A DNA stretch of 64,000 nt, from assembly GCA_027468165.1 (NCBI GenBank), contig GCA_027468165.1_3951.1; one strand, given 5' to 3'. The DNA comes from a phage. Below are positions 4,041-19,249 of this stretch, piece by piece. Under the pieces are notes generated by a model. It had not been told where the DNA came from. It did no database searches and was given only the letters and a program-made list of their open reading frames with translations. Made by a program: the position numbers and the translations under genes. Position 1 is the first letter of the stretch. The number at the start of each line of letters is the position of its first letter.

Positions 4041-4487
4041 TACCAAGCAGATATACATCTTCTACAGATATTTTTGAGTTCCTTTAAAGACCCTAAAAAA
4101 TGACTTGATAGTTCTATTTTATAAAAAATTTAAAATTCTGAATAATTACCTAGACAGTCTTCTAAAAATACAGGCATAAACAGGCTTATAAGATACCTTG
4201 TTAATACCTTGTTAGACCTTGTGAGATAAGGTCTGTAAAGATATTCCTGTTAAGTTTGTTAAAACAGTCTATATAGAGGCTTAGTAATACCTAGTGAACA
4301 CCTATAGAGGTAACATAGCTAACCTAATGGGTTACTGTTAAGTAACACAGGTAACCTAGAGATTAAGAGGTGTATAGGAGCTTCTAAGAGGGTATAGAGT
4401 GATGGTTAAGGTGATTGTATAGGTTGTTAAGAAGGCTTGTTAGAGGGCTATTTAGAAGGACTATACAGAGGGGCTATTAAGACCACT

Positions 4488-4535
4488 AGATAGATACTAA
4501 GATACTATATAGTACTATATAACTATATATAGAGA
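4488..4535. repeat. AT-rich tract with TACTATATA-type repeats
   Basis: TAGATAGATACTAAGATACTATATAGTACTATATAACTATATATAGAGAG. Confidence 0.6.
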
Positions 4536-4665
4536 GTAAGCTTAAGAAGGTTGTTAAGAAGGGTAGATATTTTATTCACATATGATGGTGACCCAGAGGT
4601 TGGGACAACCGATAAAATTTTATAAAAATTGAAAAGCCCCCAATTAAGGAGGCTCTTAAGATATT

Positions 4666-5259
4666 TTAAACCAGTGTTTCCAGAACTGTCTTCAGTGATG
4701 ACTTGGTTGTCTGATAAAAATGAGTAAATCCATTGTTGTTATCAAATACCAGCATCATGATATCATCTCCATTAATTGGGTACACTCGGATATCATAGTG
4801 AAACCCATTAAAGACAGCAGAACCATTACAGAATGCACTAAAGTCATCCACTGAGATGTACTCTTCATGACCTGTGATTTTTATACAGATACCCTTACTC
4901 GGTCTCTTAGGGTTGATATCTTCCATCACAGACATACTCTGTCCACCAAGAGACACCATAGTGACTACTTTACGGTTCTTCTGTCTAAAGTACATCTTAA
5001 CTTTCTGTAAAGTGTCTTCATAGAACGGATAAGACTTCTCTACAAAGATTCCTTCAAGTGGCTCTTTACCGTTTACAATACCTCTGTTATGACGTACTGC
5101 AAAGATAATTTGTTGGAGCCAGTCAAGATTTTCTTCGGAGAGTGCTTCCCGAATATCATTCCAGTCAAGGACTAGGTAGTTGCCTTCAACCTCTTTTAAG
5201 TTATCTTTTTCCATATCTATCACACCATTATCGTAAAACTTGGTAATCTGGTACTGCAA
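4666..5259 (-). CDS. Hypothetical protein (197 aa)
   Basis: ORF track; first gene of a tightly packed minus-strand block. Confidence 0.5.
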   Translation of the reverse strand: MQYQITKFYDNGVIDMEKDNLKEVEGNYLVLDWNDIREALSEENLDWLQQIIFAVRHNRGIVNGKEPLEGIFVEKSYPFYEDTLQKVKMYFRQKNRKVVTMVSLGGQSMSVMEDINPKRPSKGICIKITGHEEYISVDDFSAFCNGSAVFNGFHYDIRVYPINGDDIMMLVFDNNNGFTHFYQTTKSSLKTVLETLV

Positions 5260-5692: not shown

Positions 5693-5745
5693 CTTGCTAC
5701 CTTCTAAGTTCCTACAAAGGGGCTATCAAGTAACCCCTCAAGTTG

Positions 5746-5970
5746 TTACTCAGACTTTTCAGTTTTCTTATCGGATTTCTTACTAGCCTTCTTCTCAGCT
5801 TTCTGTTCAGGTTCCTTCTCAGAAGTTGCCTTAATAACCATATCAAGAAGCTCTGATAAGTCACTCTTCAGTAGAGTAACGGGCTGCTCATTGTAGAAGT
5901 TTTTGTCAAGATAATCTTTGAACTCTTCAATAGAAGGAAATCCAAAAATTGGTACAGGTGTCTTAATCAT
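5746..5970 (-). CDS. Hypothetical protein with lysine-rich C-terminal tail (74 aa)
   Basis: ORF track; C-terminus EPEQKAEKKASKKSDKKTEKSE. Confidence 0.45.
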   Translation of the reverse strand: MIKTPVPIFGFPSIEEFKDYLDKNFYNEQPVTLLKSDLSELLDMVIKATSEKEPEQKAEKKASKKSDKKTEKSE

Positions 5971-10246: not shown

Positions 10247-10614
10247 TTCTTTTTAGCCTCTAAACGTGCGTTTAATCTAAAATAGCCTTTATGTTGTGGA
10301 GACACATCACTAACAACAATACCTTCAACCTTATAACCCTTACCAATTACATACTGGATACCCATAAGAAACGTACCAAGCCCAACAATGTGGAACATTG
10401 GGTATAGTAACTTATCTGAATCTGGGAGCTTAATTTCTGGGTTATAGGTGGGTTGTTCGGCAGTTGGTGTAATATCCTCTTCAGGCCATTTACTCATTCT
10501 CCATGTTAAAGGTGATGCAATAACATCGTTAAGATTGTATCTTTCACCATTCTCCACGGAGTGGATATAGGATTGTAGGAAGCAATAAAAGTCTTTTGCA
10601 CTCTTAGCCTTCAT
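10243..10614 (-). CDS. Paralog of the N-terminal domain of the 9362-10246 product (123 aa)
   Basis: Shared pattern AK..DF...RY...WPE.DI...Y.P..K.P.SD.LLY...QY.I.GK between the two proteins. Confidence 0.55.
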   Translation of the reverse strand: MKAKSAKDFYCFLQSYIHSVENGERYNLNDVIASPLTWRMSKWPEEDITPTAEQPTYNPEIKLPDSDKLLYPMFHIVGLGTFLMGIQYVIGKGYKVEGIVVSDVSPQHKGYFRLNARLEAKKK

Positions 10615-10627
10615 TAAATATCCTTAT

Positions 10628-10658
10628 AAACAGATAAAGGGGCATCAGCCCCTGTTTA
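10628..10658 (-). terminator. Hairpin GGGGC-ATCA-GCCCC with T-rich flank on minus strand
   Basis: Read directly; intergenic between two minus-strand genes. Confidence 0.4.
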
Positions 10659-10661
10659 TAC

Positions 10662-11252
10662 TTAAGCTTTGGTCTTAAGTAGGTTCTTAAGTTTTTTGAG
10701 ATTCATGCTCTCGTCAAACTTAAAACCAAATCCATTGACATAATCAATGAACTCGGATTTCTTACTAAGTGATAGTGCGTAACTCATATCAAAGTTATTA
10801 CTTGTTTCTGCGTCTGGACTAGAGTTCACATCAAATGAAATTTCTGTAGGCTCTTGCTTGCTACTTCTCATATTATCAATCAATAGACAGGTGTAGTTCG
10901 CTGGATAGAAGTTAACACTCCCATCAACATACCCATACTTATTATTGTGAATAAGGCTTGAAAATACCTTAAGAAATGTTTCTGAGTCGTGGCATACAAG
11001 TTTGAATTGGCTGCATTCTCCAAGAGCCACTAAAGAGTAAGGACTTTCACTATCAATGTCATAGTTTGGGTTTGATGTTGTAACCGTCACACGCATCAGG
11101 TTATTGGCAATAGTCTTCTGCTTAAAAGAATTTGGAACATAGTGAAGACCTCTATCACACTGATTAACTAACTCTTTCAATAGGTCATTTGCATATGGTG
11201 AATTAATTGATACAGAGCCATCACTATTATAATTAAAACTTACTGTTAACAT
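10662..11252 (-). CDS. Hypothetical protein (196 aa)
   Basis: ORF track. Confidence 0.5.
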   Translation of the reverse strand: MLTVSFNYNSDGSVSINSPYANDLLKELVNQCDRGLHYVPNSFKQKTIANNLMRVTVTTSNPNYDIDSESPYSLVALGECSQFKLVCHDSETFLKVFSSLIHNNKYGYVDGSVNFYPANYTCLLIDNMRSSKQEPTEISFDVNSSPDAETSNNFDMSYALSLSKKSEFIDYVNGFGFKFDESMNLKKLKNLLKTKA

Positions 11253-11479
11253 TTTTCAGTTCTCCTGCGATTTATGATTTTGCTGCAATAGAGAAACGAA
11301 GTAAACTCACTGGAAGAAACCATTAAGTGTTGTTCACTAGATTGAGCCATTGCCCTGAAATACATTCCAGTCAAAGCATCGTAGTGACTATTCTTTCCAA
11401 TTGAGGTTATATAGCCATGACTCTTTGCAGTTTTATATAAATCTATAATATCTGCGATTTCTAATTGGGAACTACACAT
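11246..11479 (-). CDS. Hypothetical protein (77 aa)
   Basis: ORF track. Confidence 0.4.
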   Translation of the reverse strand: MCSSQLEIADIIDLYKTAKSHGYITSIGKNSHYDALTGMYFRAMAQSSEQHLMVSSSEFTSFLYCSKIINRRRTEKC

Positions 11480-11714
11480 AGATAATCCTCTTGTCTTCTG
11501 TAATTTTGAAAGAACAGGTACAGACCAATTTCAGAGGACGAATAGTAGAGTAACTCTACCCTTTTTGATTCCTTACAGTGATTGGTATTTTTACCTTTCT
11601 TCGGGTTGTTTGATTTTCTCATTAAGTCTCCTTTGTAGAACAAGGCAGACCTACAGCTTTAAGTAAGATGGTACAGTAATCCATACAACAAGTCAAGAAC
11701 TATTGCAAGTTAAA

Positions 11715-11765
11715 AAAGTTGTTGACAAAGGACTTGACAAGGTGTAGGCTTATAAATACTTAGAA
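11715..11765 (+). promoter_or_regulatory. Putative promoter region at the minus-to-plus strand switch (tandem TTGACA boxes, motif ACTTGACAAGGTG)
   Basis: AAAAAAGTTGTTGACAAAGGACTTGACAAGGTGTAGGCTTATAAAT; the -10 element is ambiguous. Confidence 0.35.
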
Positions 11766-11871
11766 GATTACTTAAAAGGTTCCTCTAAAAAGGCTATTTA
11801 AACAGATATCTTTCTGGATATCTATCTTTTATCTTAAAAGCCTTTTAAGAGGTCTTATAAGAGGCATACCA

Positions 11872-12243
11872 ATGAAAAACAGAACAAACAAAGGCCAGTT
11901 TAAAAAAGGCCAGTCTGGAAACCCATCTGGAAGACCAAAAGGCTCTCGTAACAAAAGCTCTCTCGTAAAAGCTCAACTGACCATTGATAATTCTGCTGAG
12001 TTTGCTGCAAAGCTGTTTGAGGCGATTGTTACAAGGGACGCTGCTAAGCTTGCAGAGTTCGGTTTGACGACTGACGATGTAAACCTGAAGTCAATGATGG
12101 AAGCTGGTAAAACTATCATGACCCACTCAGCAGGTGAGATGAAAGCAATTGCAGCAGACACTAAGAAGACTCCTGATAACGGTGGTCAACAACAGACAGA
12201 TAACAAACCAACGTTCTCTGCTGTAGCAACTCTCAAAAAATAA
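11872..12243 (+). CDS. Small basic protein with N-terminal GNPSGRPKG motif (123 aa)
   Basis: ORF track; motif recurs in many uncharacterised phage proteins, function not assigned here. Confidence 0.5.
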   Translation: MKNRTNKGQFKKGQSGNPSGRPKGSRNKSSLVKAQLTIDNSAEFAAKLFEAIVTRDAAKLAEFGLTTDDVNLKSMMEAGKTIMTHSAGEMKAIAADTKKTPDNGGQQQTDNKPTFSAVATLKK

Positions 12244-12250
12244 TTTTAAA

Positions 12251-12285
12251 AGGTGTTGACAGACTCTACAAAGTTGCTCTAAAGT
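12251..12285 (+). promoter_or_regulatory. Putative promoter: A-tract, TTGACA 12256-12261, 18 bp, TAAAGT 12280-12285, with inverted repeat GACAGACT/AGTCTGTC bridging -35 and -10
   Basis: Read directly. Confidence 0.5.
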
Positions 12286-12324
12286 CTGTCACATCAAACA
12301 ACAAATGAGAGAAGAGAGTAAAAT

Positions 12325-13740
12325 ATGAGCGAGTTATTTAAACATGCGCACCTTCATACAGGTCGAACTGAAAATGGTGCTGTAAACCATACTTCATCAA
12401 TGTCTGCTCTGGTAGACTTCTACAAAGCCGCTGGCTCAAGCCGTAGCAATGTAGAAATCTTACCAGACCTGTTCTACAAAGCTTTGCGTGAGGATGTTGA
12501 TGTTGCAGTTCGTATTTTACTGCATATGCGAGATGTACGAGAAGGTATGGGCGAGCGTAAAGCTTTCCGAACTGTTTTACTTCAAGCAATTGAAGATAAG
12601 GTTTTAGAGCCTACACAGGTTCTTCGCATCATGGATAAGATTGCAGAACTTGGTCGTTTTGATGACTTCAAAATCTTCGTAGGTACTCGTTTTGAGACAG
12701 ATTCCTTCAAACATTTAGAAGCAGCATTACTAGACCCTGCAACAGCAGGTTTAGCAGCTAAGTGGTTGCCACGAGTAAAACCACGCCACAAACAGTTTGT
12801 AAAACGTTTCTGTAAGTTTGCAAACTTGAGTGAGAAGGAGTATCGCACACTGTTATCTGCACTGTCTGATACGGTTGAGCAAAAAATCTCTGCTAATGAT
12901 TTTGGTAAGATTGACTACAGCAAGATTCCTTCACTCGCTGCTGCACGTTACCAAAAGCTCTTTAACCGTAAAGATGGGGAACGTTACAAAGCTTATATCG
13001 AGTCACTCTCAAAAGGTGAGGCTAAGATTAACGCTGGTGCTGTTTACCCATACGATGTGATTAAATCTATTAAGTATGGTAATGCAGATGTTGCTAATGA
13101 GCAGTGGAAAGCACTTCCAAACTGGATGGCAGAAGGTGAAAACATCTTGTGTATGACTGATGTCTCAAGCTCAATGTCTTGGGTGAATCTTGGTTCAATC
13201 ACTGCCCTTGATATTGGTGTATCCCTTGCCTTGTATGTAGCAGAACGCAATACAGGTTGCTTTAAAGATGAGTTAATGGTCTATTCAACAAACCCTCATT
13301 TCATTGAACTGAGTGGTGATTTACGAAACCGTCATCGTCAGGTGATGCGACATGTTGAATATGGTTCAACTAACTTACAAGCAGCTTTTGACCGCATTCT
13401 TGAGGTAGGTAAGCGAAACAAATTGACTCAGAAAGATATGCCAAGTAAGCTTATCATCTTCTCTGATATGGAGTTTAATCAGGTTGATGGTGCAAATGGT
13501 CGTACAAACTTTGAAGCAATTCAGAGTAAGTACAAAAAAGCTGGATATGAGATGCCACAACTAGTATTCTGGTACTTAGCAAACCGTAATGGTACTTGCG
13601 AAGTGTCTGTTAAGGATAATGGTGTAGCAATGGTATCAGGGTTCTCTCCAGCCACTTTAAAAGCTCTGCTTGGTGGTGAGAAGTTTGACCCAATCAGCGT
13701 AATGCTCAAAGCAGTAATGATTGACCGTTACATCTGGTAA
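12325..13740 (+). CDS. von Willebrand factor A (vWA) domain protein with MIDAS motif; N-terminal ~270 aa unassigned (possibly TROVE-like)
   Basis: DxSxS motif (CMTDVSSSMS) followed by a vWA-like beta strand (KLIIFSDMEF); strong SD; sits immediately upstream of the tRNA array. Confidence 0.65.
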   Translation: MSELFKHAHLHTGRTENGAVNHTSSMSALVDFYKAAGSSRSNVEILPDLFYKALREDVDVAVRILLHMRDVREGMGERKAFRTVLLQAIEDKVLEPTQVLRIMDKIAELGRFDDFKIFVGTRFETDSFKHLEAALLDPATAGLAAKWLPRVKPRHKQFVKRFCKFANLSEKEYRTLLSALSDTVEQKISANDFGKIDYSKIPSLAAARYQKLFNRKDGERYKAYIESLSKGEAKINAGAVYPYDVIKSIKYGNADVANEQWKALPNWMAEGENILCMTDVSSSMSWVNLGSITALDIGVSLALYVAERNTGCFKDELMVYSTNPHFIELSGDLRNRHRQVMRHVEYGSTNLQAAFDRILEVGKRNKLTQKDMPSKLIIFSDMEFNQVDGANGRTNFEAIQSKYKKAGYEMPQLVFWYLANRNGTCEVSVKDNGVAMVSGFSPATLKALLGGEKFDPISVMLKAVMIDRYIW

Positions 13741-13752
13741 AAAGTTTTAAAA

Positions 13753-13787
13753 AGGGTATTGACAATGTGTTTGATACCCTTTAATAT
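13753..13787 (+). promoter_or_regulatory. Putative promoter: A-tract, TTGACA 13759-13764, 17 bp, TAATAT 13782-13787
   Basis: Near-consensus sigma70 elements; likely drives the tRNA array. Confidence 0.55.
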
Positions 13788-13842
13788 GTTCTACATAGAA
13801 ACGAAATGAGAGCTTTTCTAAGATACTGAAAATATTTTAAAA

Positions 13843-13878
13843 AAGTTCTTGACAACCACTAAAAAATAATGTTAAAGT
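13843..13878 (+). promoter_or_regulatory. Putative promoter: A-tract, TTGACA 13849-13854, 18 bp, TAAAGT 13873-13878, inverted repeat AACCACT/AGTGGTT
   Basis: Read directly. Confidence 0.5.
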
Positions 13879-13904
13879 GGTTACATAGAGTTTGAAAAGT
13901 TTAT

Positions 13905-13981
13905 CTCTGTTTAGCTCAGCTTGGTAGAGCGTTCCGTTTGGGGCGGTAAGGCCGGAGGTTCAAGTCCTCCAACAGAGACCA
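13905..13981 (+). tRNA. tRNA-Pro (anticodon UGG)
   Basis: Manual fold: acceptor CTCTGTT/AACAGAG, D-arm GCTCAGCTTGGTAGAGC, anticodon loop TTTGGGG, T-arm GGAGG-TTCAAGT-CCTCC, CCA encoded. Confidence 0.7.
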
Positions 13982-13988
13982 AATTAAT

Positions 13989-14066
13989 GTTCCAGTAGAC
14001 AAAATGGTATAGTCACCACTCTTTCAAAGTGGATATTTGAGGGTTCAAATCCCTTCTGGAACGCCA
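13989..14066 (+). tRNA. tRNA-Glu (anticodon UUC)
   Basis: Acceptor GTTCCAG/CTGGAAC, anticodon stem-loop CCACT-CTTTCAA-AGTGG, T-loop TTCAAAT, CCA encoded. Confidence 0.75.
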
Positions 14067-14073
14067 GTTTTGA

Positions 14074-14146
14074 CAGAAGACCAATTGCAGCAAACTTAAT
14101 CTTATTCATCTGACACGAAATCGGACAAAGAAGAGATTTGGTCTGG
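14074..14146 (+). repeat. tRNA-spacer element E1 (5' CAGAAGACC ... 3' GGTCTGG)
   Basis: Conserved termini able to pair (AGACC/GGTCT); starts 8 nt after tRNA-Glu and ends 12 nt before the next tRNA. Confidence 0.5.
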
Positions 14147-14157
14147 TCATTAAGAAT

Positions 14158-14234
14158 TGCGGGTATAGAGAAAGGGCGTCTCACATGTCTCATTAGCATG
14201 GTATCGGCAGGTTCGACTCCTGCACCCGCCTCCA
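14158..14234 (+). tRNA. tRNA-Met (anticodon CAU), initiator-like
   Basis: Anticodon stem-loop CATGT-CTCATTA-GCATG, T-arm GCAGG-TTCGACT-CCTGC, acceptor with unpaired 1:72 position; D-arm atypical. Confidence 0.55.
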
Positions 14235-14240
14235 ATTTTG

Positions 14241-14300
14241 CAGAAGACCGTATGCAGCAATAAACTACTTTTTGCGGATAAAAGAAAAAACACGGTCTGG
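14241..14300 (+). repeat. tRNA-spacer element E2 (CAGAAGACC ... GGTCTGG)
   Basis: Same terminal motifs and same placement relative to flanking tRNAs as E1. Confidence 0.5.
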
Positions 14301-14311
14301 CAATGTATTAA

Positions 14312-14385
14312 GGTTAGGAAGCACATAAGGTATGTGCGGTCGCCTGTTAAGCGAATGGCACAGGGTTCGAATCCCTGACTAACCG
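14312..14385 (+). tRNA. tRNA-Asn (anticodon GUU)
   Basis: Acceptor GGTTAGG/ACTAACC, D-stem GCAC/GTGC, anticodon loop CTGTTAA, T-arm CAGGG-TTCGAAT-CCCTG. Confidence 0.65.
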
Positions 14386-14396
14386 CAAATTTAAAT

Positions 14397-14484
14397 GTGT
14401 CGTTATCCCGTAGATGGTAGCGGTGGGGACTGTAAATCCCTTGTCATTGAGACTCGGTAGGTTCGACTCCTACACGGCACACCA
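14397..14484 (+). tRNA. tRNA-Tyr (anticodon GUA), long variable arm
   Basis: Acceptor GTGTCGT/ACGGCAC, anticodon loop CTGTAAA, ~14-nt variable arm, T-arm GTAGG-TTCGACT-CCTAC, CCA encoded. Confidence 0.7.
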
Positions 14485-14545
14485 ATTTTGAGAGGGCTAT
14501 TTAGCCCCTCCCTTAAAGGGTTCTTACGAGTATCCTTTAAAGGAG

Positions 14546-14619
14546 CAGAAGACCAAATACAGCAAGTTACTTAAAATTTCAAGCTAATTTAATTTTGAAA
14601 AATTTAAAACTTGGTCTGG
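14546..14619 (+). repeat. tRNA-spacer element E3 (CAGAAGACC ... GGTCTGG)
   Basis: Same terminal motifs. Confidence 0.5.
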
Positions 14620-14632
14620 CTCAACAAATTTA

Positions 14633-14763
14633 CAGAAGACCGTTTACAGCAAAACTTAAACAATCTATTTCTCGGTAAAGAAAAGGCGAAGGTTCGATTC
14701 CTTCACTCGGCAGATGTCGAGTTGGTGTAATGGTAGCACTTAAGATGATAAACAACGGTCTGG
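14633..14763 (+). repeat. tRNA-spacer element E4 (CAGAAGACC ... GGTCTGG) enclosing a tRNA-like fragment
   Basis: Same terminal motifs; interior contains T-arm and acceptor-like hairpins. Confidence 0.5.
14688..14739 (+). other. tRNA-like fragment in permuted order (T-arm + 3' acceptor strand, then complementary 5' acceptor strand + D-arm); no anticodon arm
   Basis: GAAGG-TTCGATT-CCTTC then ACTCGGC, 4-nt gap, then GTCGAGT + TGGTGTAATGGTAGCAC; the two acceptor strands are complementary. Confidence 0.3.
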
Positions 14764-14866
14764 TAATTATCTTTGCAGTAGCTTATGTGGCTAATTATGT
14801 CGTCCCATGAGTGCCGATGAATTTCCTTAGCATGATTCTAGATTAGCTTAATAGGAAATGACTCTA

Positions 14867-14887
14867 CAGACCCTTTAGCAAGGTCTG
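14867..14887 (+). repeat. Minimal spacer element E5 (CAGACC-CTTTAGCAA-GGTCTG)
   Basis: Shares the AGACC/GGTCT closing stem and GCAA motif with E1-E4. Confidence 0.4.
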
Positions 14888-14914
14888 CGTAGGTTACTGC
14901 AAAGATAATTTAAT

Positions 14915-14990
14915 GGAAGTGTAGCAGAATGGTGATGCGGCAGACTTTTAATCTGACAGGCGACGGGTTCGAATCCCTCCACTTCTACCA
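14915..14990 (+). tRNA. tRNA-Lys (anticodon UUU)
   Basis: Acceptor GGAAGTG/CACTTCT, anticodon loop CTTTTAA, T-loop TTCGAAT, CCA encoded; T-stem weak. Confidence 0.6.
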
Positions 14991-14994
14991 ATAT

Positions 14995-15071
14995 GGTTCA
15001 GTCGCAGATAAGGTAATGCAAGGGTCTCATAAGCCCTATGAATGTGGGTTCGATTCCCATCTGAACCTCCA
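14995..15071 (+). tRNA. tRNA with anticodon CAU (elongator Met or Ile-lysidine)
   Basis: Acceptor GGTTCAG/CTGAACC, anticodon stem-loop AGGGT-CTCATAA-GCCCT, T-loop TTCGATT, CCA encoded. Confidence 0.65.
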
Positions 15072-15072
15072 A

Positions 15073-15148
15073 GCTGGTATAGTTAAGAAGGTTATAACAC
15101 TCCCCTGATAAGGGAACATCGGTGGTTCGATTCCACCTACCAGTACCA
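15073..15148 (+). tRNA. tRNA-Ile (anticodon GAU)
   Basis: Acceptor GCTGGTA/TACCAGT, anticodon loop CTGATAA, T-arm GGTGG-TTCGATT-CCACC, CCA encoded. Confidence 0.7.
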
Positions 15149-15157
15149 ATTTCAATA

Positions 15158-15192
15158 AAGTTGTTGACATTGATATGTGACCACTTTATAGT
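15158..15192 (+). promoter_or_regulatory. Putative internal promoter: A-tract, TTGACA 15164-15169, 17 bp, TATAGT 15187-15192
   Basis: Near-consensus sigma70 elements. Confidence 0.5.
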
Positions 15193-15484
15193 AACTAAAA
15201 TACTTCATAATATGTATAATTCAAACACCAATACATGAGCGTTAGACGTAACACAATGTGGGGAAATTTGTTGTACATATTCTGAATAGTTTTCGTTGCG
15301 TAGCGTCTATTTTGCAAATTTAAAATAAATGCAAACGACAATGTTTTTCTGGCAGTAGCTTGATAGGCTAAACACCAGTGAGGTCTTCCAATCCCTCATC
15401 AAAGAATTTGGCGTACTCGCCCACGGTATGATTAATAAGGTGGGCATCTTTAAGGGTTTTTTAAGAGAGTCTTTAAAGATTAAT

Positions 15485-15561
15485 GCACCCTTAGTTCAAC
15501 TGGACAGAACAAATGACTTCTAATCATTAGGTTACAGGTTCGAATCCTGTAGGGTGTGCCA
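15485..15561 (+). tRNA. tRNA-Arg (anticodon UCU)
   Basis: Acceptor GCACCCT/AGGGTGT, D-stem GTTC/GAAC, anticodon stem-loop AATGA-CTTCTAA-TCATT, T-arm ACAGG-TTCGAAT-CCTGT, CCA encoded. Confidence 0.75.
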
Positions 15562-15576
15562 GTTTAAGAGGTATAT

Positions 15577-15918
15577 ATGAAGAACGGCTCTATAGGAGAA
15601 ATTGCAACTCAACTTGAGTTTATGAAGATGGGATATGAAATCTACTCACCAGCAACTGACAATGCTAGGTATGATTTTATAGCTCACAAAGACGGTAAAC
15701 TTTATAAAGTTGAAGTTAAATCCACCTCAAGGAAAGTTAGAGATGTATGGAAAGTGCAACTAAAGAGAGTTCATTCAAATAGAAGTTCAAACAGAATAGC
15801 TAACTTTGATAACACGTTAGTTGATTTCTTATCAGTTTATATTGAACCTCTTGAAAAGGTTATAATCCTTAAAGCTAAAGACGTTACTTCAAAAACTGAG
15901 TTAAGCTTAAGGGTTTAG
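15577..15918 (+). CDS. Small PD-(D/E)xK nuclease-like protein (113 aa) embedded in the tRNA array
   Basis: Motif D(FIA)...KVEVKS resembling the PD...(D/E)xK catalytic core; strong SD. Confidence 0.5.
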   Translation: MKNGSIGEIATQLEFMKMGYEIYSPATDNARYDFIAHKDGKLYKVEVKSTSRKVRDVWKVQLKRVHSNRSSNRIANFDNTLVDFLSVYIEPLEKVIILKAKDVTSKTELSLRV

Positions 15919-16027
15919 ATTATCTTCTGTAAGGAGGTGGTCTGTATCTCATGTTTCCAGAACATGTAAATAATCTGAGAAGGGGCTTTACAGTGTTGCG
16001 AAAATACGGTAAGCTTCGAATTATAGT

Positions 16028-16110
16028 ATGGGACGATGTTAAGACTCTAAGGCATGAGCAACGGCTTCCAACACCGTTTCAAAGGGGTTCAACTCCTCCG
16101 TCCCATGCCA
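16028..16110 (+). tRNA. Atypical tRNA-like gene, possibly tRNA-Trp (anticodon CCA) with enlarged D-region
   Basis: Perfect acceptor ATGGGAC/GTCCCAT, anticodon stem-loop ACGGC-TTCCAAC-ACCGT, T-loop TTCAACT, CCA encoded; D-region ~7 nt too long. Confidence 0.4.
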
Positions 16111-16122
16111 AGTCTTATTAGG

Positions 16123-16210
16123 GGTAGGTAGCGGCTAATGGTAGCCAAACTGTCTTGAAAACAGTTGCCACTGTAGAGATACGGTGAGGGTTCGACTCCT
16201 TTACTTACCG
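16123..16210 (+). tRNA. tRNA-Ser (anticodon UGA), long variable arm
   Basis: Anticodon stem-loop ACTGT-CTTGAAA-ACAGT, ~20-nt variable arm, T-loop TTCGACT. Confidence 0.6.
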
Positions 16211-16465
16211 CCTAATAAGATTTAAAGCCAAGCTTCATTCGGATGTTGCTTTGGTATCCCTCGTGTATTGTCGTACACAAGTAAAGCACCTAGTAGGTGT
16301 CACGGAGAAGAGATAATATCAAGCTCTCCAAAGGTTCTAGTCACCGGATTAAACAAGACTATGCAAAGGCCTATTTAGGTCTTTTTAGAGGGCTTCTAAG
16401 GTTATTACAGCTTGTTGTGGAACCTTGTTGCTTAGGTTCTTAGAAGTTCTCTAAAAAGATTTAAT

Positions 16466-16543
16466 GGGAGATTGACGGTAATTGGTAAACCTATCTCGCT
16501 TAGAACGAGATGTTTGAGGGTTCGAATCCCTTGTCTCCTACCA
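16466..16543 (+). tRNA. tRNA with anticodon UAG (Leu), short variable region
   Basis: Acceptor GGGAGAT/GTCTCCT, anticodon stem-loop TCTCG-CTTAGAA-CGAGA, 5-nt variable region, T-arm GAGGG-TTCGAAT-CCCTT, A73, CCA encoded. Confidence 0.6.
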
Positions 16544-16550
16544 AATTAAT

Positions 16551-16626
16551 GCAGGTGTAGCAAAATGGTTATGCGGCTGACTCTTAATCAGTAAGACGAT
16601 GGGTTCAATTCCCTCCACCTGTACCA
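16551..16626 (+). tRNA. tRNA-Lys (anticodon CUU)
   Basis: Acceptor GCAGGTG/CACCTGT, anticodon stem-loop GCTGA-CTCTTAA-TCAGT, T-loop TTCAATT, CCA encoded. Confidence 0.65.
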
Positions 16627-16632
16627 GACATT

Positions 16633-16708
16633 GGGGATGTAGTTTACATGGTTAAAACATAAGTTTTGCAAACTTAAGTACAGGGTTCAATTCCCTGCTT
16701 CTCCACCA
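16633..16708 (+). tRNA. tRNA-Ala (anticodon UGC)
   Basis: G3:U70 wobble pair in acceptor stem, D-stem GTTT/AAAC, anticodon stem-loop TAAGT-TTTGCAA-ACTTA, T-arm CAGGG-TTCAATT-CCCTG, CCA encoded. Confidence 0.75.
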
Positions 16709-16714
16709 ATTAGT

Positions 16715-16789
16715 GCATCCATAGTTTAAACGGGAAAATTACAGTCTTCCAAACTGAGGTTGAGGGTTCGATTCCCTCTGGATGCTCCA
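16715..16789 (+). tRNA. tRNA-Gly (anticodon UCC)
   Basis: Acceptor GCATCCA/TGGATGC, anticodon loop CTTCCAA, T-arm GAGGG-TTCGATT-CCCTC, CCA encoded. Confidence 0.7.
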
Positions 16790-16796
16790 AATTAAT

Positions 16797-16873
16797 GCTG
16801 CTTTCGTATAATTGGCTATTACACATCCCTTGTAAGGATGGAAATGCAGGTTCGAGTCCTGTGAGCAGCACCA
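16797..16873 (+). tRNA. tRNA-Thr (anticodon UGU)
   Basis: Acceptor GCTGCTT/GAGCAGC, anticodon stem-loop CATCC-CTTGTAA-GGATG, T-arm GCAGG-TTCGAGT-CCTGT, CCA encoded. Confidence 0.75.
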
Positions 16874-16968
16874 ATTCAGAGGTCAAGTGAAAGACCGCTG
16901 GTGTCAACTGAAGACCGTAACAAATTCCACGGAGTTGAGTTAGCGGCACAACTTCAGACCTCTTTCAT

Positions 16969-17043
16969 ACTCGCTTAGTTTATATGGTAAAACACCACCC
17001 TTACAAGATGAAGAAAAAGGTTCAAGTCCTTTAGTGAGTACCA
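16969..17043 (+). tRNA. tRNA-Val (anticodon UAC)
   Basis: Acceptor ACTCGCT/AGTGAGT, D-stem GTTT/AAAC, anticodon loop CTTACAA, T-arm AAAGG-TTCAAGT-CCTTT, CCA encoded; anticodon stem weak. Confidence 0.6.
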
Positions 17044-17044
17044 T

Positions 17045-17122
17045 GTTCCAGTATCCCAATTGGTAGAGGATGCAAGCTCAAACCTTGTACTAGTGACGGT
17101 TCGAATCCGTCTTGGAACACCA
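17045..17122 (+). tRNA. tRNA with anticodon CAA (Leu), short variable region
   Basis: Acceptor GTTCCAG/TTGGAAC, anticodon stem-loop GCAAG-CTCAAAC-CTTGT, 6-nt variable region, T-arm GACGG-TTCGAAT-CCGTC, A73, CCA encoded. Confidence 0.6.
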
Positions 17123-17236
17123 ACTTTAGGAGAGCACTGTGAGTGATAAGTCAATAGCAAAAAAGTTTAGAGCGTCATACCTAAACAGACGTAAAAACAG
17201 AGATTGTGAAAAACTGTATGGTGTTCTTGTAGGTAA

Positions 17237-17312
17237 GCAGGATTAGTTCAAATGGATAGAGCAACAGTCTACGAAGCTGTTAATAGGGGTTCGAATCCCT
17301 TATCCTGCGCCA
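17237..17312 (+). tRNA. tRNA-Arg (anticodon ACG)
   Basis: Perfect acceptor GCAGGAT/ATCCTGC, anticodon stem-loop ACAGT-CTACGAA-GCTGT, T-loop TTCGAAT, CCA encoded. Confidence 0.75.
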
Positions 17313-17331
17313 ATTTAAAGAGGCTATTTAG

Positions 17332-17889
17332 ATGAGATATTTGAAGTATGCTTCATGGATTTTCTTAGCTTTGTTAGAGCCATTTGCAGCAATCTTAGCA
17401 GTTATCTTAGCACCTTTCGTAGTTCCATTTTACAGTGAGAAGAAAGGACACTTACCTTTCGGCTTCAGATGGATGGAAACATACGACAACCCAATTGATG
17501 GTGATAAAGGTCATGTCGAACGGTGGGCTAAGATTAGAAAGATTGGTAAGCTCGGTGTCTACATGCAGAGAGTTGGATGGCTCTGGAGAAACAAAGCTTA
17601 TAACTTCTCTTACCATGTGTTAGGAAGAGATGTAAAAGATGTTACTAAGTGGAAAGGTAATATCAATGTAAGTTCTAACCCTGAAGATAATCAGACAGGT
17701 TATCTCCTAATGTGGAACAGTAATGCTTGGGGGTTATTCGCTTTTATCCCATCAATTAAAGTCTTTGGTAAACAATTCTACTGGAGAATTTATGTTGGGT
17801 GGAAACTTAAAAGTGTTGTCCCAGAAGAAAGAGCATTCTCAAGGGAAAGAGTTATGTTGGCATTCTTTATTCATCCACTGAGAAAGTAA
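17332..17889 (+). CDS. Membrane protein with hydrophobic N-terminus (185 aa) embedded in the tRNA array
   Basis: ORF track; N-terminal segment WIFLALLEPFAAILAVILAPFVVPF; ATG 20 nt after tRNA-Arg. Confidence 0.5.
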   Translation: MRYLKYASWIFLALLEPFAAILAVILAPFVVPFYSEKKGHLPFGFRWMETYDNPIDGDKGHVERWAKIRKIGKLGVYMQRVGWLWRNKAYNFSYHVLGRDVKDVTKWKGNINVSSNPEDNQTGYLLMWNSNAWGLFAFIPSIKVFGKQFYWRIYVGWKLKSVVPEERAFSRERVMLAFFIHPLRK

Positions 17890-17897
17890 AGATTTAA

Positions 17898-17973
17898 AGG
17901 GGATTAGTTTACAAGGTTAAAACCTCGGTCTTTGAAATCGAAGAAGTTGGTTCAATTCCAACATCCCCCGCCA
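17898..17973 (+). tRNA. tRNA-Gln (anticodon UUG)
   Basis: D-stem GTTT/AAAC, anticodon stem-loop TCGGT-CTTTGAA-ATCGA, T-arm GTTGG-TTCAATT-CCAAC, CCA encoded; position 1:72 unpaired. Confidence 0.65.
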
Positions 17974-17975
17974 AT

Positions 17976-18054
17976 GCTCCATTACTCCAATTGGCAGAGA
18001 GGCCAGACTTAAAATCTGTGTTATGTATCGGTTCGAATCCGATATGGAGTACCA
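17976..18054 (+). tRNA. tRNA with anticodon UAA (Leu), short variable region
   Basis: Acceptor GCTCCAT/ATGGAGT, anticodon loop CTTAAAA, 7-nt variable region, T-arm ATCGG-TTCGAAT-CCGAT, A73, CCA encoded. Confidence 0.6.
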
Positions 18055-18059
18055 AATTT

Positions 18060-18135
18060 AGCGGTATAGCATAACTGGCAATGCAACAGTCTCTGAAGCT
18101 GTCTTATTAAGGTTCAAATCCTTATGCCGCTGCCA
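18060..18135 (+). tRNA. tRNA-Gln (anticodon CUG)
   Basis: Acceptor AGCGGTA/TGCCGCT, D-stem GCAT/ATGC, anticodon stem-loop ACAGT-CTCTGAA-GCTGT, T-arm TAAGG-TTCAAAT-CCTTA, CCA encoded. Confidence 0.7.
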
Positions 18136-18166
18136 CTTCTAAGGGTTCTTACGAGAGTCCTTAAAT

Positions 18167-18242
18167 GTGGCCTTATCATAAATGGTAATGACCCATGCTG
18201 TGAACATGGTCTATACGGGTTCAAATCCCGTAGGTCACCCCA
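18167..18242 (+). tRNA. tRNA-His (anticodon GUG)
   Basis: Acceptor GTGGCCT/AGGTCAC, D-stem TCAT/ATGA, anticodon stem-loop CCATG-CTGTGAA-CATGG, T-arm ACGGG-TTCAAAT-CCCGT, C73, CCA encoded. Confidence 0.75.
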
Positions 18243-18247
18243 ATTTA

Positions 18248-18324
18248 TAGTCCAAGTAGCTTATATGGTTAAAGCGCGTGTCTGAAAAACATGAGAAGAG
18301 GGTTCAAATCCCACTGGACTACCA
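18248..18324 (+). tRNA. tRNA-Phe (anticodon GAA); ends uncertain
   Basis: D-stem GCTT/AAGC, anticodon stem-loop CGTGT-CTGAAAA-ACATG, T-loop TTCAAAT; acceptor pairing admits two registers. Confidence 0.55.
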
Positions 18325-18340
18325 ATTTCAAAGGTGCTTA

Positions 18341-19075
18341 ATGAAAGAGATGACAGAACAAGGTAAGGAGATTTTTAATCTCTTAAAAACTGGTAGAGGG
18401 TTTTCTAATCCCCTTATTACTGGTGCAGCAGTTCTCGGTGGAACCGTAGCTGCCTCTACATCACTTGTAAGCTCTATTAGCTCTGTAACAGACCCTACAA
18501 TAAAGGATAAACTTGTTGCGGCTGGACTTACAACAGTTCTGCTTAACAGCTTTACAACGAGTCTGACAAGCACTACATCAACCACTAAGACACTGACAGA
18601 TTACGGTCAAAAGTCCATTGATGAGTTTTCATCACGTATGCAGGTAGCAAAAGGATATTCCAATGTTATGGGTGCAGCAGGAGAACAAGTCGGTTGTACA
18701 CCATTTAGTGGTATTATGGGTGTTGCTACAGAGTACGGTCAAAAAGCTATTGACACAATTAACAGTACACTAGATGGTGTTAATGATGTATTAAGTGACT
18801 TACAAGATGCTATTGATAAAGGTCTTGATACTGTTTCTGATTTAGCTAATCAGGCTGTTAGTAAGATTAATGAAGGTATTTCGAAGATTACAGCTTATGC
18901 AAATGAAGTTGTGCAGATGATTGAAGAAGAAGCTGCCCTTATTGCAGAGTACCTTAAAACGAATATCAATGGGTTCTTAGCAGGTATCTTACCAGACTGG
19001 TTTGATGATGCTTGTAAAACTGGTGTGATTGACACTATTGCAACACCAGAAATGAAGAGCGCATTACAGAAATAA
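18341..19075 (+). CDS. Hypothetical Ser/Thr-rich protein (245 aa from the ATG at 18341)
   Basis: ORF-track frame trimmed to the first ATG downstream of tRNA-Phe (MKEMTEQ...). Confidence 0.5.
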   Translation: MKEMTEQGKEIFNLLKTGRGFSNPLITGAAVLGGTVAASTSLVSSISSVTDPTIKDKLVAAGLTTVLLNSFTTSLTSTTSTTKTLTDYGQKSIDEFSSRMQVAKGYSNVMGAAGEQVGCTPFSGIMGVATEYGQKAIDTINSTLDGVNDVLSDLQDAIDKGLDTVSDLANQAVSKINEGISKITAYANEVVQMIEEEAALIAEYLKTNINGFLAGILPDWFDDACKTGVIDTIATPEMKSALQK

Positions 19076-19076
19076 T

Positions 19077-19169
19077 GGAAGATTAACCCTAAAAGGTAAG
19101 GGAGCAGTTTGCTAAACTGCCAGTAGCTGAGAAATCGGTGTACCAGTTCAAGTCTGGTATCTTCCTCCA
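19077..19169 (+). tRNA. tRNA-Ser (anticodon GCU), long variable arm
   Basis: Acceptor GGAAGAT/ATCTTCC, anticodon stem-loop GCAGT-TTGCTAA-ACTGC, ~21-nt variable arm, T-arm ACCAG-TTCAAGT-CTGGT, CCA encoded. Confidence 0.6.
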
Positions 19170-19173
19170 ATTT

Positions 19174-19249
19174 GAATCCGTGACAGAAATGGCTATGTGC
19201 CTGTCTGCAAAACAGGTTTATAAGGGTTCGAGTCCCTTCGGATTCTCCA
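19174..19249 (+). tRNA. tRNA-Cys (anticodon GCA)
   Basis: Perfect acceptor GAATCCG/CGGATTC, anticodon stem-loop CCTGT-CTGCAAA-ACAGG, T-arm AAGGG-TTCGAGT-CCCTT, U73, CCA encoded. Confidence 0.7.

Follow-up and report, generated by a model that had tools for sequence, protein, structure and literature searches.

The 64-kb stretch of phage DNA examined here (GenBank assembly GCA_027468165.1, contig GCA_027468165.1_3951.1; hereafter the window) is, judging by its sequence, a segment of a Felixounavirus (Felix O1-like) genome, positions 11500–15000 sharing 97–98% identity with many phages of Salmonella and Escherichia (261 records). At the head of its tRNA array it encodes a Ro60-like protein and four small RNA elements closed by a common "handle", a short helix followed on its 5′ side by a CAGCAA box. 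The handle is linked to the Ro-like gene strictly, in the same orientation and independently of lineage, across very distant phages and prophage-like loci. We consider it likely that the protein and the RNAs form a specific ribonucleoprotein (RNP) of the Ro60/Y-RNA type, both halves of which are encoded at the locus. An initial annotation of the window, made from its letters alone, had raised an RNP of this kind as a possibility; fold prediction and the linkage of the handle RNAs to the gene now support it.

A Ro60-Like Protein of the DUF2828/DUF7788 Family

The open reading frame (ORF) at 12325–13740 is a full-length member of the DUF2828/DUF7788 (PHROG 850) family. It matches Pfam DUF2828 (PF11443, E = 4e-29) in its N-terminal part, DUF7788 (PF25043, E = 1e-43) at residues 275–455 and PHROG 850, "RNA-binding protein", over residues 1–471 (E = 4e-183). 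The vWA-like core that the initial annotation placed in the C-terminal ~190 residues coincides with the DUF7788 match, and the MIDAS (metal ion-dependent adhesion site) read by it in TDVSSSMS is complete: the DxSxS at 13159–13173 (D279-V-S281-S-S283) is joined by T349 and D381, and all five residues are invariant across 58 aligned homologues. When the family profile is aligned with Ro60-type vWA domains using hhalign, MIDAS falls on MIDAS.

The suggestion of a Ro60-like N terminus is supported by fold only, in that the domain is predicted to have a helical, TROVE-like fold but its sequence matches DUF2828 and not TROVE. Neither Pfam TROVE (PF05731) nor vWA_Ro60 (PF25045) matches the ORF at E ≤ 0.1; the positive control, gp220 of mycobacteriophage ET08, matches both, and BLASTP of gp220 against the ORF gave E ~ 1. 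With hhalign, the profile of the homologues aligned to 35 canonical TROVE proteins with 90% probability (E = 1.7e-6, 188 columns), an alignment that spans only the last TROVE helix and the vWA domain and leaves residues 1–235 unaligned. Fold comparison was needed because sequence searches of the PDB gave nothing (phmmer) or a weak match (family profile, Ro60 over the MIDAS region, E ~ 0.9). The full-length fold match of the protein is Ro60, not a structural vWA protein, and fold prediction assigns the ORF, with high confidence, the whole Ro60 architecture, a helical HEAT-like/TROVE-like ring domain followed by a MIDAS-bearing vWA domain.

The family is present in 710 phage records, including phages of Escherichia (120), Mycobacterium (95), Salmonella (77), Vibrio (56), Listeria (54), Staphylococcus (42), and Campylobacter (40). 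The Ro-like gene is very often found within or adjoining tRNA arrays, and the genes that flank it differ completely between lineages. In Listeria phage A511, an RtcB gene, an RNA ligase gene, and an HD phosphohydrolase gene are nearby. A sampling of neighborhoods for RNA-repair genes gave anecdotal support (RtcB and RNA ligase in A511, PTH2 twice, and RNA ligase once).

Four Handle RNAs in the tRNA Array

As initially annotated, the Ro-like gene sits directly upstream of a tRNA array, which comprises 25 tRNAs (13905–19249, all on the + strand by ARAGORN) and begins 165 nt downstream of the ORF. The stem-closed spacer elements noticed there are four copies of one family (14071–14766; table 1), located 330–1030 nt downstream of the gene on the same strand and abutting tRNA 3′ and 5′ ends. 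Each consists of a copy-specific, complementary 4-bp lower stem, an AGA/G internal loop and a 7–8-bp helix (AGACC-NN/NN-GGUCU), with the CAGCAA box 3 nt past the 5′ strand of the helix (14088–14093 in RNA 1) and a variable interior after the box. The 5′ and 3′ ends pair, the same closing structure being obtained in every single-sequence fold, and the lower stem of RNA 2 becomes TTAC/GTAA in homologous loci L004–L006, a compensatory change. The pattern AGAAGACC-N40-70-GGTCTGG has three occurrences versus none in 100 shuffles, and a covariance model of the handle (R1, described below), searched against the 64 kb of the window, retrieves exactly RNAs 1–4, at E = 6e-6 to 2e-5, the fifth-best match being at E = 1.2. 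A kink-turn reading of the AGA/G internal loop was ruled out by inspection, as position 1n is G and not the required A and the loop is not kept outside Felixounavirus.

The interiors of RNAs 1–3 are short and AU-rich; that of RNA 4 contains a V-like hairpin followed by a permuted tRNA domain. The initial annotation had recognized tRNA arms at 14688–14739 that do not make a canonical tRNA, and these proved to be a T arm (GAAGG-TTCGATT-CCTTC), a closed 7-bp acceptor hairpin (ACTCGGC-AGAT-GTCGAGT) and, after a TG linker, a D arm (GTGT-AATGGTA-GCAC). Both loops, TTCGATT of the T arm and AATGGTA of the D arm, bear tRNA consensus positions. The native sequence does not form a canonical cloverleaf, being neither called by ARAGORN nor matched by an Rfam tRNA model at E ≤ 10. 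Two circularly re-permuted constructs of RNA 4 are called tRNAs by ARAGORN at default thresholds, and in the re-permuted form the "anticodon stem" runs on into the handle.

No Rfam family, Y_RNA and YrlA included, matches the spacers at its gathering score, and at E ≤ 10 only tRNA-type and chance-level matches were returned. As Rfam also found nothing beside the canonical Ro gene of ET08, this negative is uninformative regarding Y-RNA membership. The search of the spacers with Y-RNA covariance models that the initial annotation had suggested was thus blank with Rfam, and our own model R1 finds the four elements.

Table 1. Positions of the Ro60-like gene, the handle RNAs and adjoining features in the window
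Feature	Position	Strand	Basis
Ro60-like protein, 471 aa, DUF2828+DUF7788, Bas63 gp130 orthologue	12325..13740	+	Pfam, PHROG, fold comparison
All-helical N-terminal domain, aa 1–~265	12325..13119	+	TROVE/HEAT-ring-like by predicted fold only
vWA domain, aa ~270–455, complete MIDAS	13132..13689	+	Pfam DUF7788, invariant residues, hhalign, vWA fold matches
Y-like RNA 1, short class	14071..14149	+	Lower stem TGAC/GTCA, AGA/G internal loop, helix AGACCAA/TTGGTCT; R1 E=9.6e-6
Y-like RNA 2, short class	14238..14303	+	Lower stem TTGC/GCAA, helix AGACCGT/ACGGTCT, CAGCAA box; R1 E=9.7e-6
Y-like RNA 3, short class	14543..14622	+	Lower stem GAGC/GCTC, helix AGACCAA/TTGGTCT, CAGCAA box; R1 E=5.9e-6
Y-like RNA 4, YrlA-type	14630..14766	+	Lower stem TTAC/GTAA, helix AGACCGT(T)/(A)ACGGTCT, CAGCAA box; R1 E=1.6e-5
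Permuted tRNA-like core of RNA 4	14688..14739	+	T arm, 7-bp closed acceptor hairpin, TG, D arm
DUF5681 ORF, 123 aa, immediately upstream of the Ro-like ORF	11872..12243	+	Pfam PF18932, E=7e-14
Sigma-70-like promoter candidate ahead of the Ro-like ORF, TTGACA-18-TAAAGT	12256..12285	+	Consensus scan, 10/12 matches
Two sigma-70-like promoter candidates, TTGACA at 13759 and 13849; would drive the tRNA/Y-like RNA array	13759..13878	+	Consensus scan

The Handle Accompanies the Ro-Like Gene in Distant Lineages

We sampled 80 viral-contig loci with homologues of the protein, 75 of them distant (38–47% protein identity). The distant loci lack the motif in its exact Felixounavirus form (AGAAGACC...GGTCTG), and single matches to the 5′ box in them are mostly coding. 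In one of these loci (L007, 47% identity) are elements with a different yet complementary helix and the same CAGCAA box, and the handle family emerged only once the sequence of the helix could vary. A strict descriptor (7-nt stem, 3 nt, CAGCAA, 15–170 nt, complementary 7 nt, then G) made 70 matches on the gene strand of the distant loci versus 2 on the opposite strand; 47 of the 75 loci were positive and 57 of the 70 matches lay within 1 kb of the Ro-like gene. In a gapless alignment of 46 handles, six of the seven helix pairs vary on both sides, with three to four Watson–Crick pair types each, the helix following the pattern A/U-G-R...Y-C-U/A, then an unpaired G. The pairs flanking it, which the descriptor does not demand, are unpaired in this alignment, indicating a discrete helix of 7 bp.

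The covariance model R1 was built from 35 handles with N-masked interiors, because the 3′ strands were misaligned when full RNAs were given to MAFFT. Searched against both strands of the 75 distant loci (885 kb), it returned 119 matches at E ≤ 1, every one on the gene strand, and at E < 0.01 about 54 of the loci were positive, many outside the seed and often with two to five tandem copies. Four data sets were independent of the building of the model. The first, mycobacteriophage Lumos and Listeria phage A511, gave two and four matches, respectively, with a YrlA-type copy seen by eye between the two in Lumos. Seven further lineages (phages of Klebsiella, Campylobacter, Ralstonia, Bacillus, Enterococcus, Staphylococcus, and Fusobacterium) gave 23 matches, all on the + strand, and Bas63 gave four. 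The last set, 80 loci from bacterial genomes and metagenome-assembled genomes (MAGs) with proteins of 33–43% identity, gave 58 matches at E < 0.01 in 41 loci, again all on the + strand and mostly less than 700 nt upstream of the Ro-like gene. The negative controls, the T5 tRNA region (40 kb) and the canonical-Ro stretch of ET08 (50 kb), yielded one match, with E = 0.15 and on the wrong strand.

At 23 loci the handle RNA stands beside the Ro-like gene with no tRNA within 6 kb; it is the protein, then, that the RNA follows, not the presence of a tRNA array. A blind RNAalifold run on ten members of the tRNA-like class recovered precisely the 7-bp helix of the handle, each of its seven pairs showing compensatory changes. 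Judged by its pattern of substitution, the helix is under selection at the RNA level.

Modular Interiors

Many handle RNAs across the loci have short, AU-rich interiors, and other classes have conserved interiors of their own. Automatic parsing resolved clean permuted tRNA domains in L010, L024, L049, L066, and Lumos, their closed acceptor hairpins measuring 7–8 bp, the linker being T/TA and the D loop containing GG; an element of L051 (L051:7422) has the same layout by eye. In L007, L031, and L033 a T arm is present and the parse is partial. The parser placed the window copy in the wrong register, and it detected no T arm in L031 or L051 and no D arm in L007 or L033. The acceptor apex carries ACCA or GCCA in L024, L049, and L051:7422, and ARAGORN called three of six re-permuted constructs as tRNAs. 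Another element of L051 (L051:5734) encloses a tRNA-like sequence in ordinary order. A column alignment of the tRNA-like class did not yield the T, acceptor, and D arms with RNAalifold, and the sequences were parsed singly instead. A constant protein-side handle with variable modules, as found here, is the organization of Y RNAs.

Comparison with Known Ro Systems

The protein half of the system is already in the literature. The PhageMaP preprint (PMC11482910) describes gp130 of Bas63 (Escherichia phage JohannRWettstein) as structurally similar to Ro60 and encoded upstream of tRNA genes, speculating that "some tRNA genes are possibly Y RNAs". Deletion of g130 led to tiny plaques on a host with the Ppl defense (ATPase plus PHP domain) and was complemented in trans, and gp130 alone, plasmid-borne or inserted into T7, rescued T7 on Ppl hosts (PMC11482910). 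The Bas63 protein, bas63_0130, is identical to the window ORF at 457 of 471 residues (97%) and occupies the same site between the DUF5681 ORF and tRNA-Pro. The present analysis differs from the preprint, in which no RNA was identified and no family-wide analysis was made. Bas63 has four handle RNAs, all in unannotated spacers and none at an annotated tRNA; its copies 3 and 4 are overlapped by bas63_0137, a mini-coding sequence on the minus strand. The RNA half (sequences, handle, YrlA-type copy, and family-wide linkage) appears not to have been described before. We found no paper that defines these RNAs or the motif, an earlier description in reviews or in the supplements of Chen et al. (2014) or PhageMaP being possible.

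Chen et al. (2014; PMC4201824) found bacterial Y RNAs within a few kb of rsr and on the same strand, as tRNA-like and shorter species, and YrlA is laid out as V, T, closed acceptor stem-loop, and D between the 5′ and 3′ handle strands. The phage locus is like bacterial Ro60 (Rsr) with YrlA and YrlB in combining a helical ring domain and a MIDAS-bearing vWA domain with same-strand RNAs within a few kb. The likeness extends to RNAs with paired ends and a conserved motif on the 5′ side, to a permuted tRNA domain with shorter companions, in RNA 4 with the elements in the YrlA order, and to what would be several RNAs per precursor. The handle RNAs of the window differ in being embedded in a tRNA array, a location excluded by the 2014 pipeline. 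The phage example of Chen et al., gp220 of the Bxz1-type mycobacteriophage ET08, has canonical TROVE and vWA_Ro60 domains, unlike the window protein, and R1 finds no handle around it. In Thermus phage phiLo, the RNAs of the Ro60 system (Yrl1 and Yrl2; PMC12135203; PDB 9KOP, 9L5Y) use a CGAA motif, and the protein is deposited as "TROVE domain-containing protein" (PDB titles), again unlike the DUF2828+DUF7788 protein of the window.

The proteins of Lumos-type phages and of Listeria phages A511, P100, and CKA15 (CKA15_055) belong to the same family at 29–34% identity. Lumos gp56 ("Ro-like RNA binding protein") and A511 gp178 ("RNA-binding protein") have both Pfam domains, and each of these two phages has three tandem handle RNAs beside the gene, one of the Lumos copies being YrlA-type. 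The records and papers on the Lumos and Listeria proteins annotate them as Ro-like from remote homology and leave a partner RNA or motif undefined; the CKA15 authors speculated about Y RNAs for their homologue (PMC12282133). A511 (L083) also contains a long noncoding block between tRNA-Pro and gp59 (4453–5111), distinct from its three handle RNAs at 5699–5968. By synteny, this block probably corresponds to the hyper-abundant RNAs CKA15_059–061, which make up to 67% of phage reads. We considered these RNAs, which are suggestive, as evidence for expression of the handle RNAs and dropped them, since the coordinates do not clearly agree and synteny with A511 points to a different intergenic block.

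Phage T5 (L095) has eight annotated stable RNAs of unknown function in its tRNA region (10284–13949), including RNAI, RNAIII, and RNAIV. Three of the eight (RNA1/2/3) are tRNA-like. The small stable RNAs of T5 lie between tRNA genes and presumably come from the same precursors. The T5 RNAs have no handle by R1; RNA1 and RNA2, the two that were folded, are acceptor-closed and not permuted, and no homologue of the Ro-like protein was detectable in the 40-kb T5 stretch searched. Species 1 and 2 of T4 are likewise stable non-tRNA RNAs of a phage tRNA cluster. Judging from T5, the non-tRNA RNAs of phage tRNA arrays seem to fall into more than one class.

Proposed Mechanism and Alternative Explanations

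We propose that the 7-bp helix and CAGCAA box are the putative binding site of the protein, the counterpart of the Ro-binding stem and GNCGAA motif of Y RNAs. Transcription, probably starting at the promoter-like sites at 13759 and 13849, would yield the RNAs as parts of the tRNA precursor, from which the enzymes that process the flanking tRNAs would release them. Their variable interiors may serve as adaptor or gate modules, with the tRNA-like interior recruiting tRNA-handling enzymes or an exoribonuclease by analogy with YrlA in Rsr–PNPase. The particle could act on structured RNAs in infection, through surveillance, protection, or decay of tRNA or rRNA, and neutralization of Ppl, the published phenotype of the orthologue, is one output of the protein.

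Several points weigh against this interpretation. We infer both the binding of RNA by the protein and the accumulation of the RNAs. The canonical Ro-binding motif (GNCGAAN0-1G in bacteria, GGUCCGA in animals) is absent, the phage box being CAGCAA after a 7-bp helix. Similarity of the N-terminal 235 residues to TROVE is undetectable by Pfam, BLASTP, or hhalign, and formally the likeness of this domain to TROVE could be convergence. Covariation statistics of the 46-sequence alignment are biased, as the descriptor imposed the pairing; unbiased support comes from the asymmetry in strand and position and from the covariance-model matches outside the seed. About one-quarter to one-half of the homologue loci, depending on the data set, are without a match, some of them having short flanks, and the promoter-like sites, whose count is no higher than in shuffles, are candidates only. 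The Listeria homologue was detected in purified virions, which is unexpected for a cytoplasmic RNP. Finally, gp130 without the Bas63 RNAs restores plating on Ppl hosts (PMC11482910). Because the protein alone suffices against Ppl, the RNAs most likely regulate or retarget it and are not obligatory cofactors.

The same result would be expected if the protein were a stand-alone anti-defense factor, directed at Ppl or something similar, with the nearby RNAs unrelated or loosely co-inherited, and gp130 alone indeed restores plating of both T7 and Bas63 on Ppl hosts and improves plating even without a defense system (PMC11482910). We nevertheless regard this as unlikely: loose co-inheritance fails to explain a co-oriented handle beside the gene in phages of Proteobacteria, Firmicutes, Actinobacteria, Campylobacter, and Fusobacterium and in MAG loci, or the persistence of the pairing at 26–47% protein identity while the flanking genes differ completely, and the handle is absent from gene-less phages (the T5/ET08 control). 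The probability is somewhat lower still that the elements act in cis, as processing or punctuation sites of the tRNA precursor or as an autoregulatory operator of the Ro-like gene. The window elements do abut tRNA ends, and at many loci an element lies 25–400 nt from the stop codon or less than 700 nt upstream of the start, compatible with an untranslated region. A cis signal would not, however, be expected to vary in position between upstream and downstream by lineage, to occur often as two to five tandem copies, to be separated from the gene by two promoter-like sites and tRNAs as in the window, or to be found at the 23 loci that have no nearby tRNA. Complete permuted tRNA interiors with ACCA apexes are likewise unexpected of a cleavage site or an operator, and a protein-binding operator would still be an interaction between the protein and an RNA handle.

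The counter-proposal named in the initial annotation, a structural or packaging vWA protein, is very improbable, as is a virion-associated protein, possibly packaged and injected. It draws on the Listeria phage CKA15 homologue found in purified particles with 57% sequence coverage (PMC12282133), and a packaged, abundant RNP would still fit the Ro60/Y-RNA interpretation. The fold match is to Ro60 over the full length, the gene lies in the early/tRNA region outside the structural module, and neither "gp130" nor "Ro60" occurs in the text of the Bas63 virion cryo-electron microscopy paper. Bas63 lacking the gene remains viable, and there is indication that the mutant has normal particles and infectivity on hosts free of the defense; its phenotype is defense-specific and complemented in trans, and the protein works in T7 infections. 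We give hardly any weight to the idea that the tRNA-like copy is just a tRNA pseudogene, whether decayed or rearranged, and the shared motif a repeat that recombination or homing endonucleases have carried around within arrays, even though Felixounavirus arrays are mosaic (HNH and PD-(D/E)XK genes, variable tRNA content) and other tRNA-like fragments are present in the window. The helix varies in sequence among lineages and copies yet stays complementary, whereas DNA repeats would lack compensatory pair changes; unrelated phages repeat the permuted order T-acceptor-D in elements that differ in sequence; and strict strand polarity and linkage to the gene hold even without arrays. These alternatives fall short as full explanations because the linkage is strand-specific, position-variable, multi-copy, and array-independent, and the changes in the helix are compensatory.

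Other Features of the Region

The DUF5681 ORF upstream of the Ro-like gene has tblastn matches confined to the Ounavirinae loci L001–L007 and none in more distant loci, and was ruled out as a third component of the module as an Ounavirinae-restricted neighbor. Inside the tRNA array is a PD-(D/E)XK ORF (15577–15918; PF11645, E = 6e-18) that may be a mobile endonuclease; a PF11645 gene is also present in the tRNA/Ro-like region of Vibrio phage phi-pp2 (L092:1979–2428). No tRNA is called in the window at 14485–14540, a stretch of ~55 nt with a GC-rich hairpin (GAGAGGGCTATTTAGCCCCTC), while at the matching place phages tootiki and Bas63 have a tRNA-Asp immediately after tRNA-Tyr, indicating that tRNA content varies within the genus.

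Further structured elements are found among the tRNAs. A 146-nt element at 14765–14910 has a closing stem of ~23 bp (minimum free energy −54 kcal/mol) and a 5′ part (GCAGTAGCTTATGTGGCTAA) that looks like a tRNA acceptor and D arm. It encloses a mini hairpin (C-AGACC-cttTAGCAA-GGTCT-G, 14862–14886) that echoes the handle. The element is matched by none of R1, ARAGORN, and Rfam, and its Bas63 counterpart is annotated as a minus-strand mini-coding sequence, bas63_0138. At 15340–15484, a tRNA-5′-like start (GCAGTAGCTTGATAGGCTAA at 15352–15371) is followed by hairpins, and Rfam gives weak matches of the transfer-messenger RNA (tmRNA) type only (E 0.0075–0.6). The sequence at 16028–16110, which the initial annotation had grouped with the RNA 4 core as atypical, is indeed tRNA-like, with TGGGACG/CGTCCCA as acceptor stem, GGGGTTCAACTCCTC as T arm, GCCA at its end, and CTTCCAACA as a 9-nt "anticodon" loop; ARAGORN does not call it at default thresholds, Rfam has no match to it at E ≤ 10, and it falls outside the handle family. 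A long hairpin at 16375–16464 (26-nt arms, 85% complementary) lies directly 5′ of tRNA-Leu in the spacer 16213–16465 and has no handle.

Among the homologous loci, four viral contigs (L033, L036, L045, and L050) encode a tmRNA on the strand of the Ro-like gene and no more than a few kb away from it. In L029, a group I intron (11720–11946; Rfam RF00028, 71.5 bits) lies downstream of the Ro-like gene and tRNAs, at a distance of a few kb.

Implications for Phage Biology

Ro60 and its Y RNAs are a classic RNA-surveillance system in which the role of the Y RNA is still debated. The Ppl phenotype of the orthologue is clean and portable to T7, and knowing the probable partner RNAs makes the system directly testable. 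Phage genomes encoding the protein number in the hundreds, and R1 can be used to annotate their handle RNAs. The handle RNAs also give a likely function to stretches of tRNA arrays that are now unannotated or misannotated as tiny ORFs, such as bas63_0137. We tentatively suggest, as a possibility that falls short of a conclusion, that DUF2828/DUF7788 proteins and CAGCAA-handle RNAs are a second, hitherto unrecognized RNP lineage of the Ro60/Y-RNA type, far commoner among phages than the canonical lineage. The modular RNAs of this lineage, with tRNA mimics and other cargo, would gate a ring protein or give it new targets; the protein in turn would protect or remodel the RNA pool in the face of host defenses that are RNA-directed or nuclease-based, Ppl for example. 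If true, this second lineage would explain part of the unannotated spacers in the tRNA arrays of phages that encode the protein.

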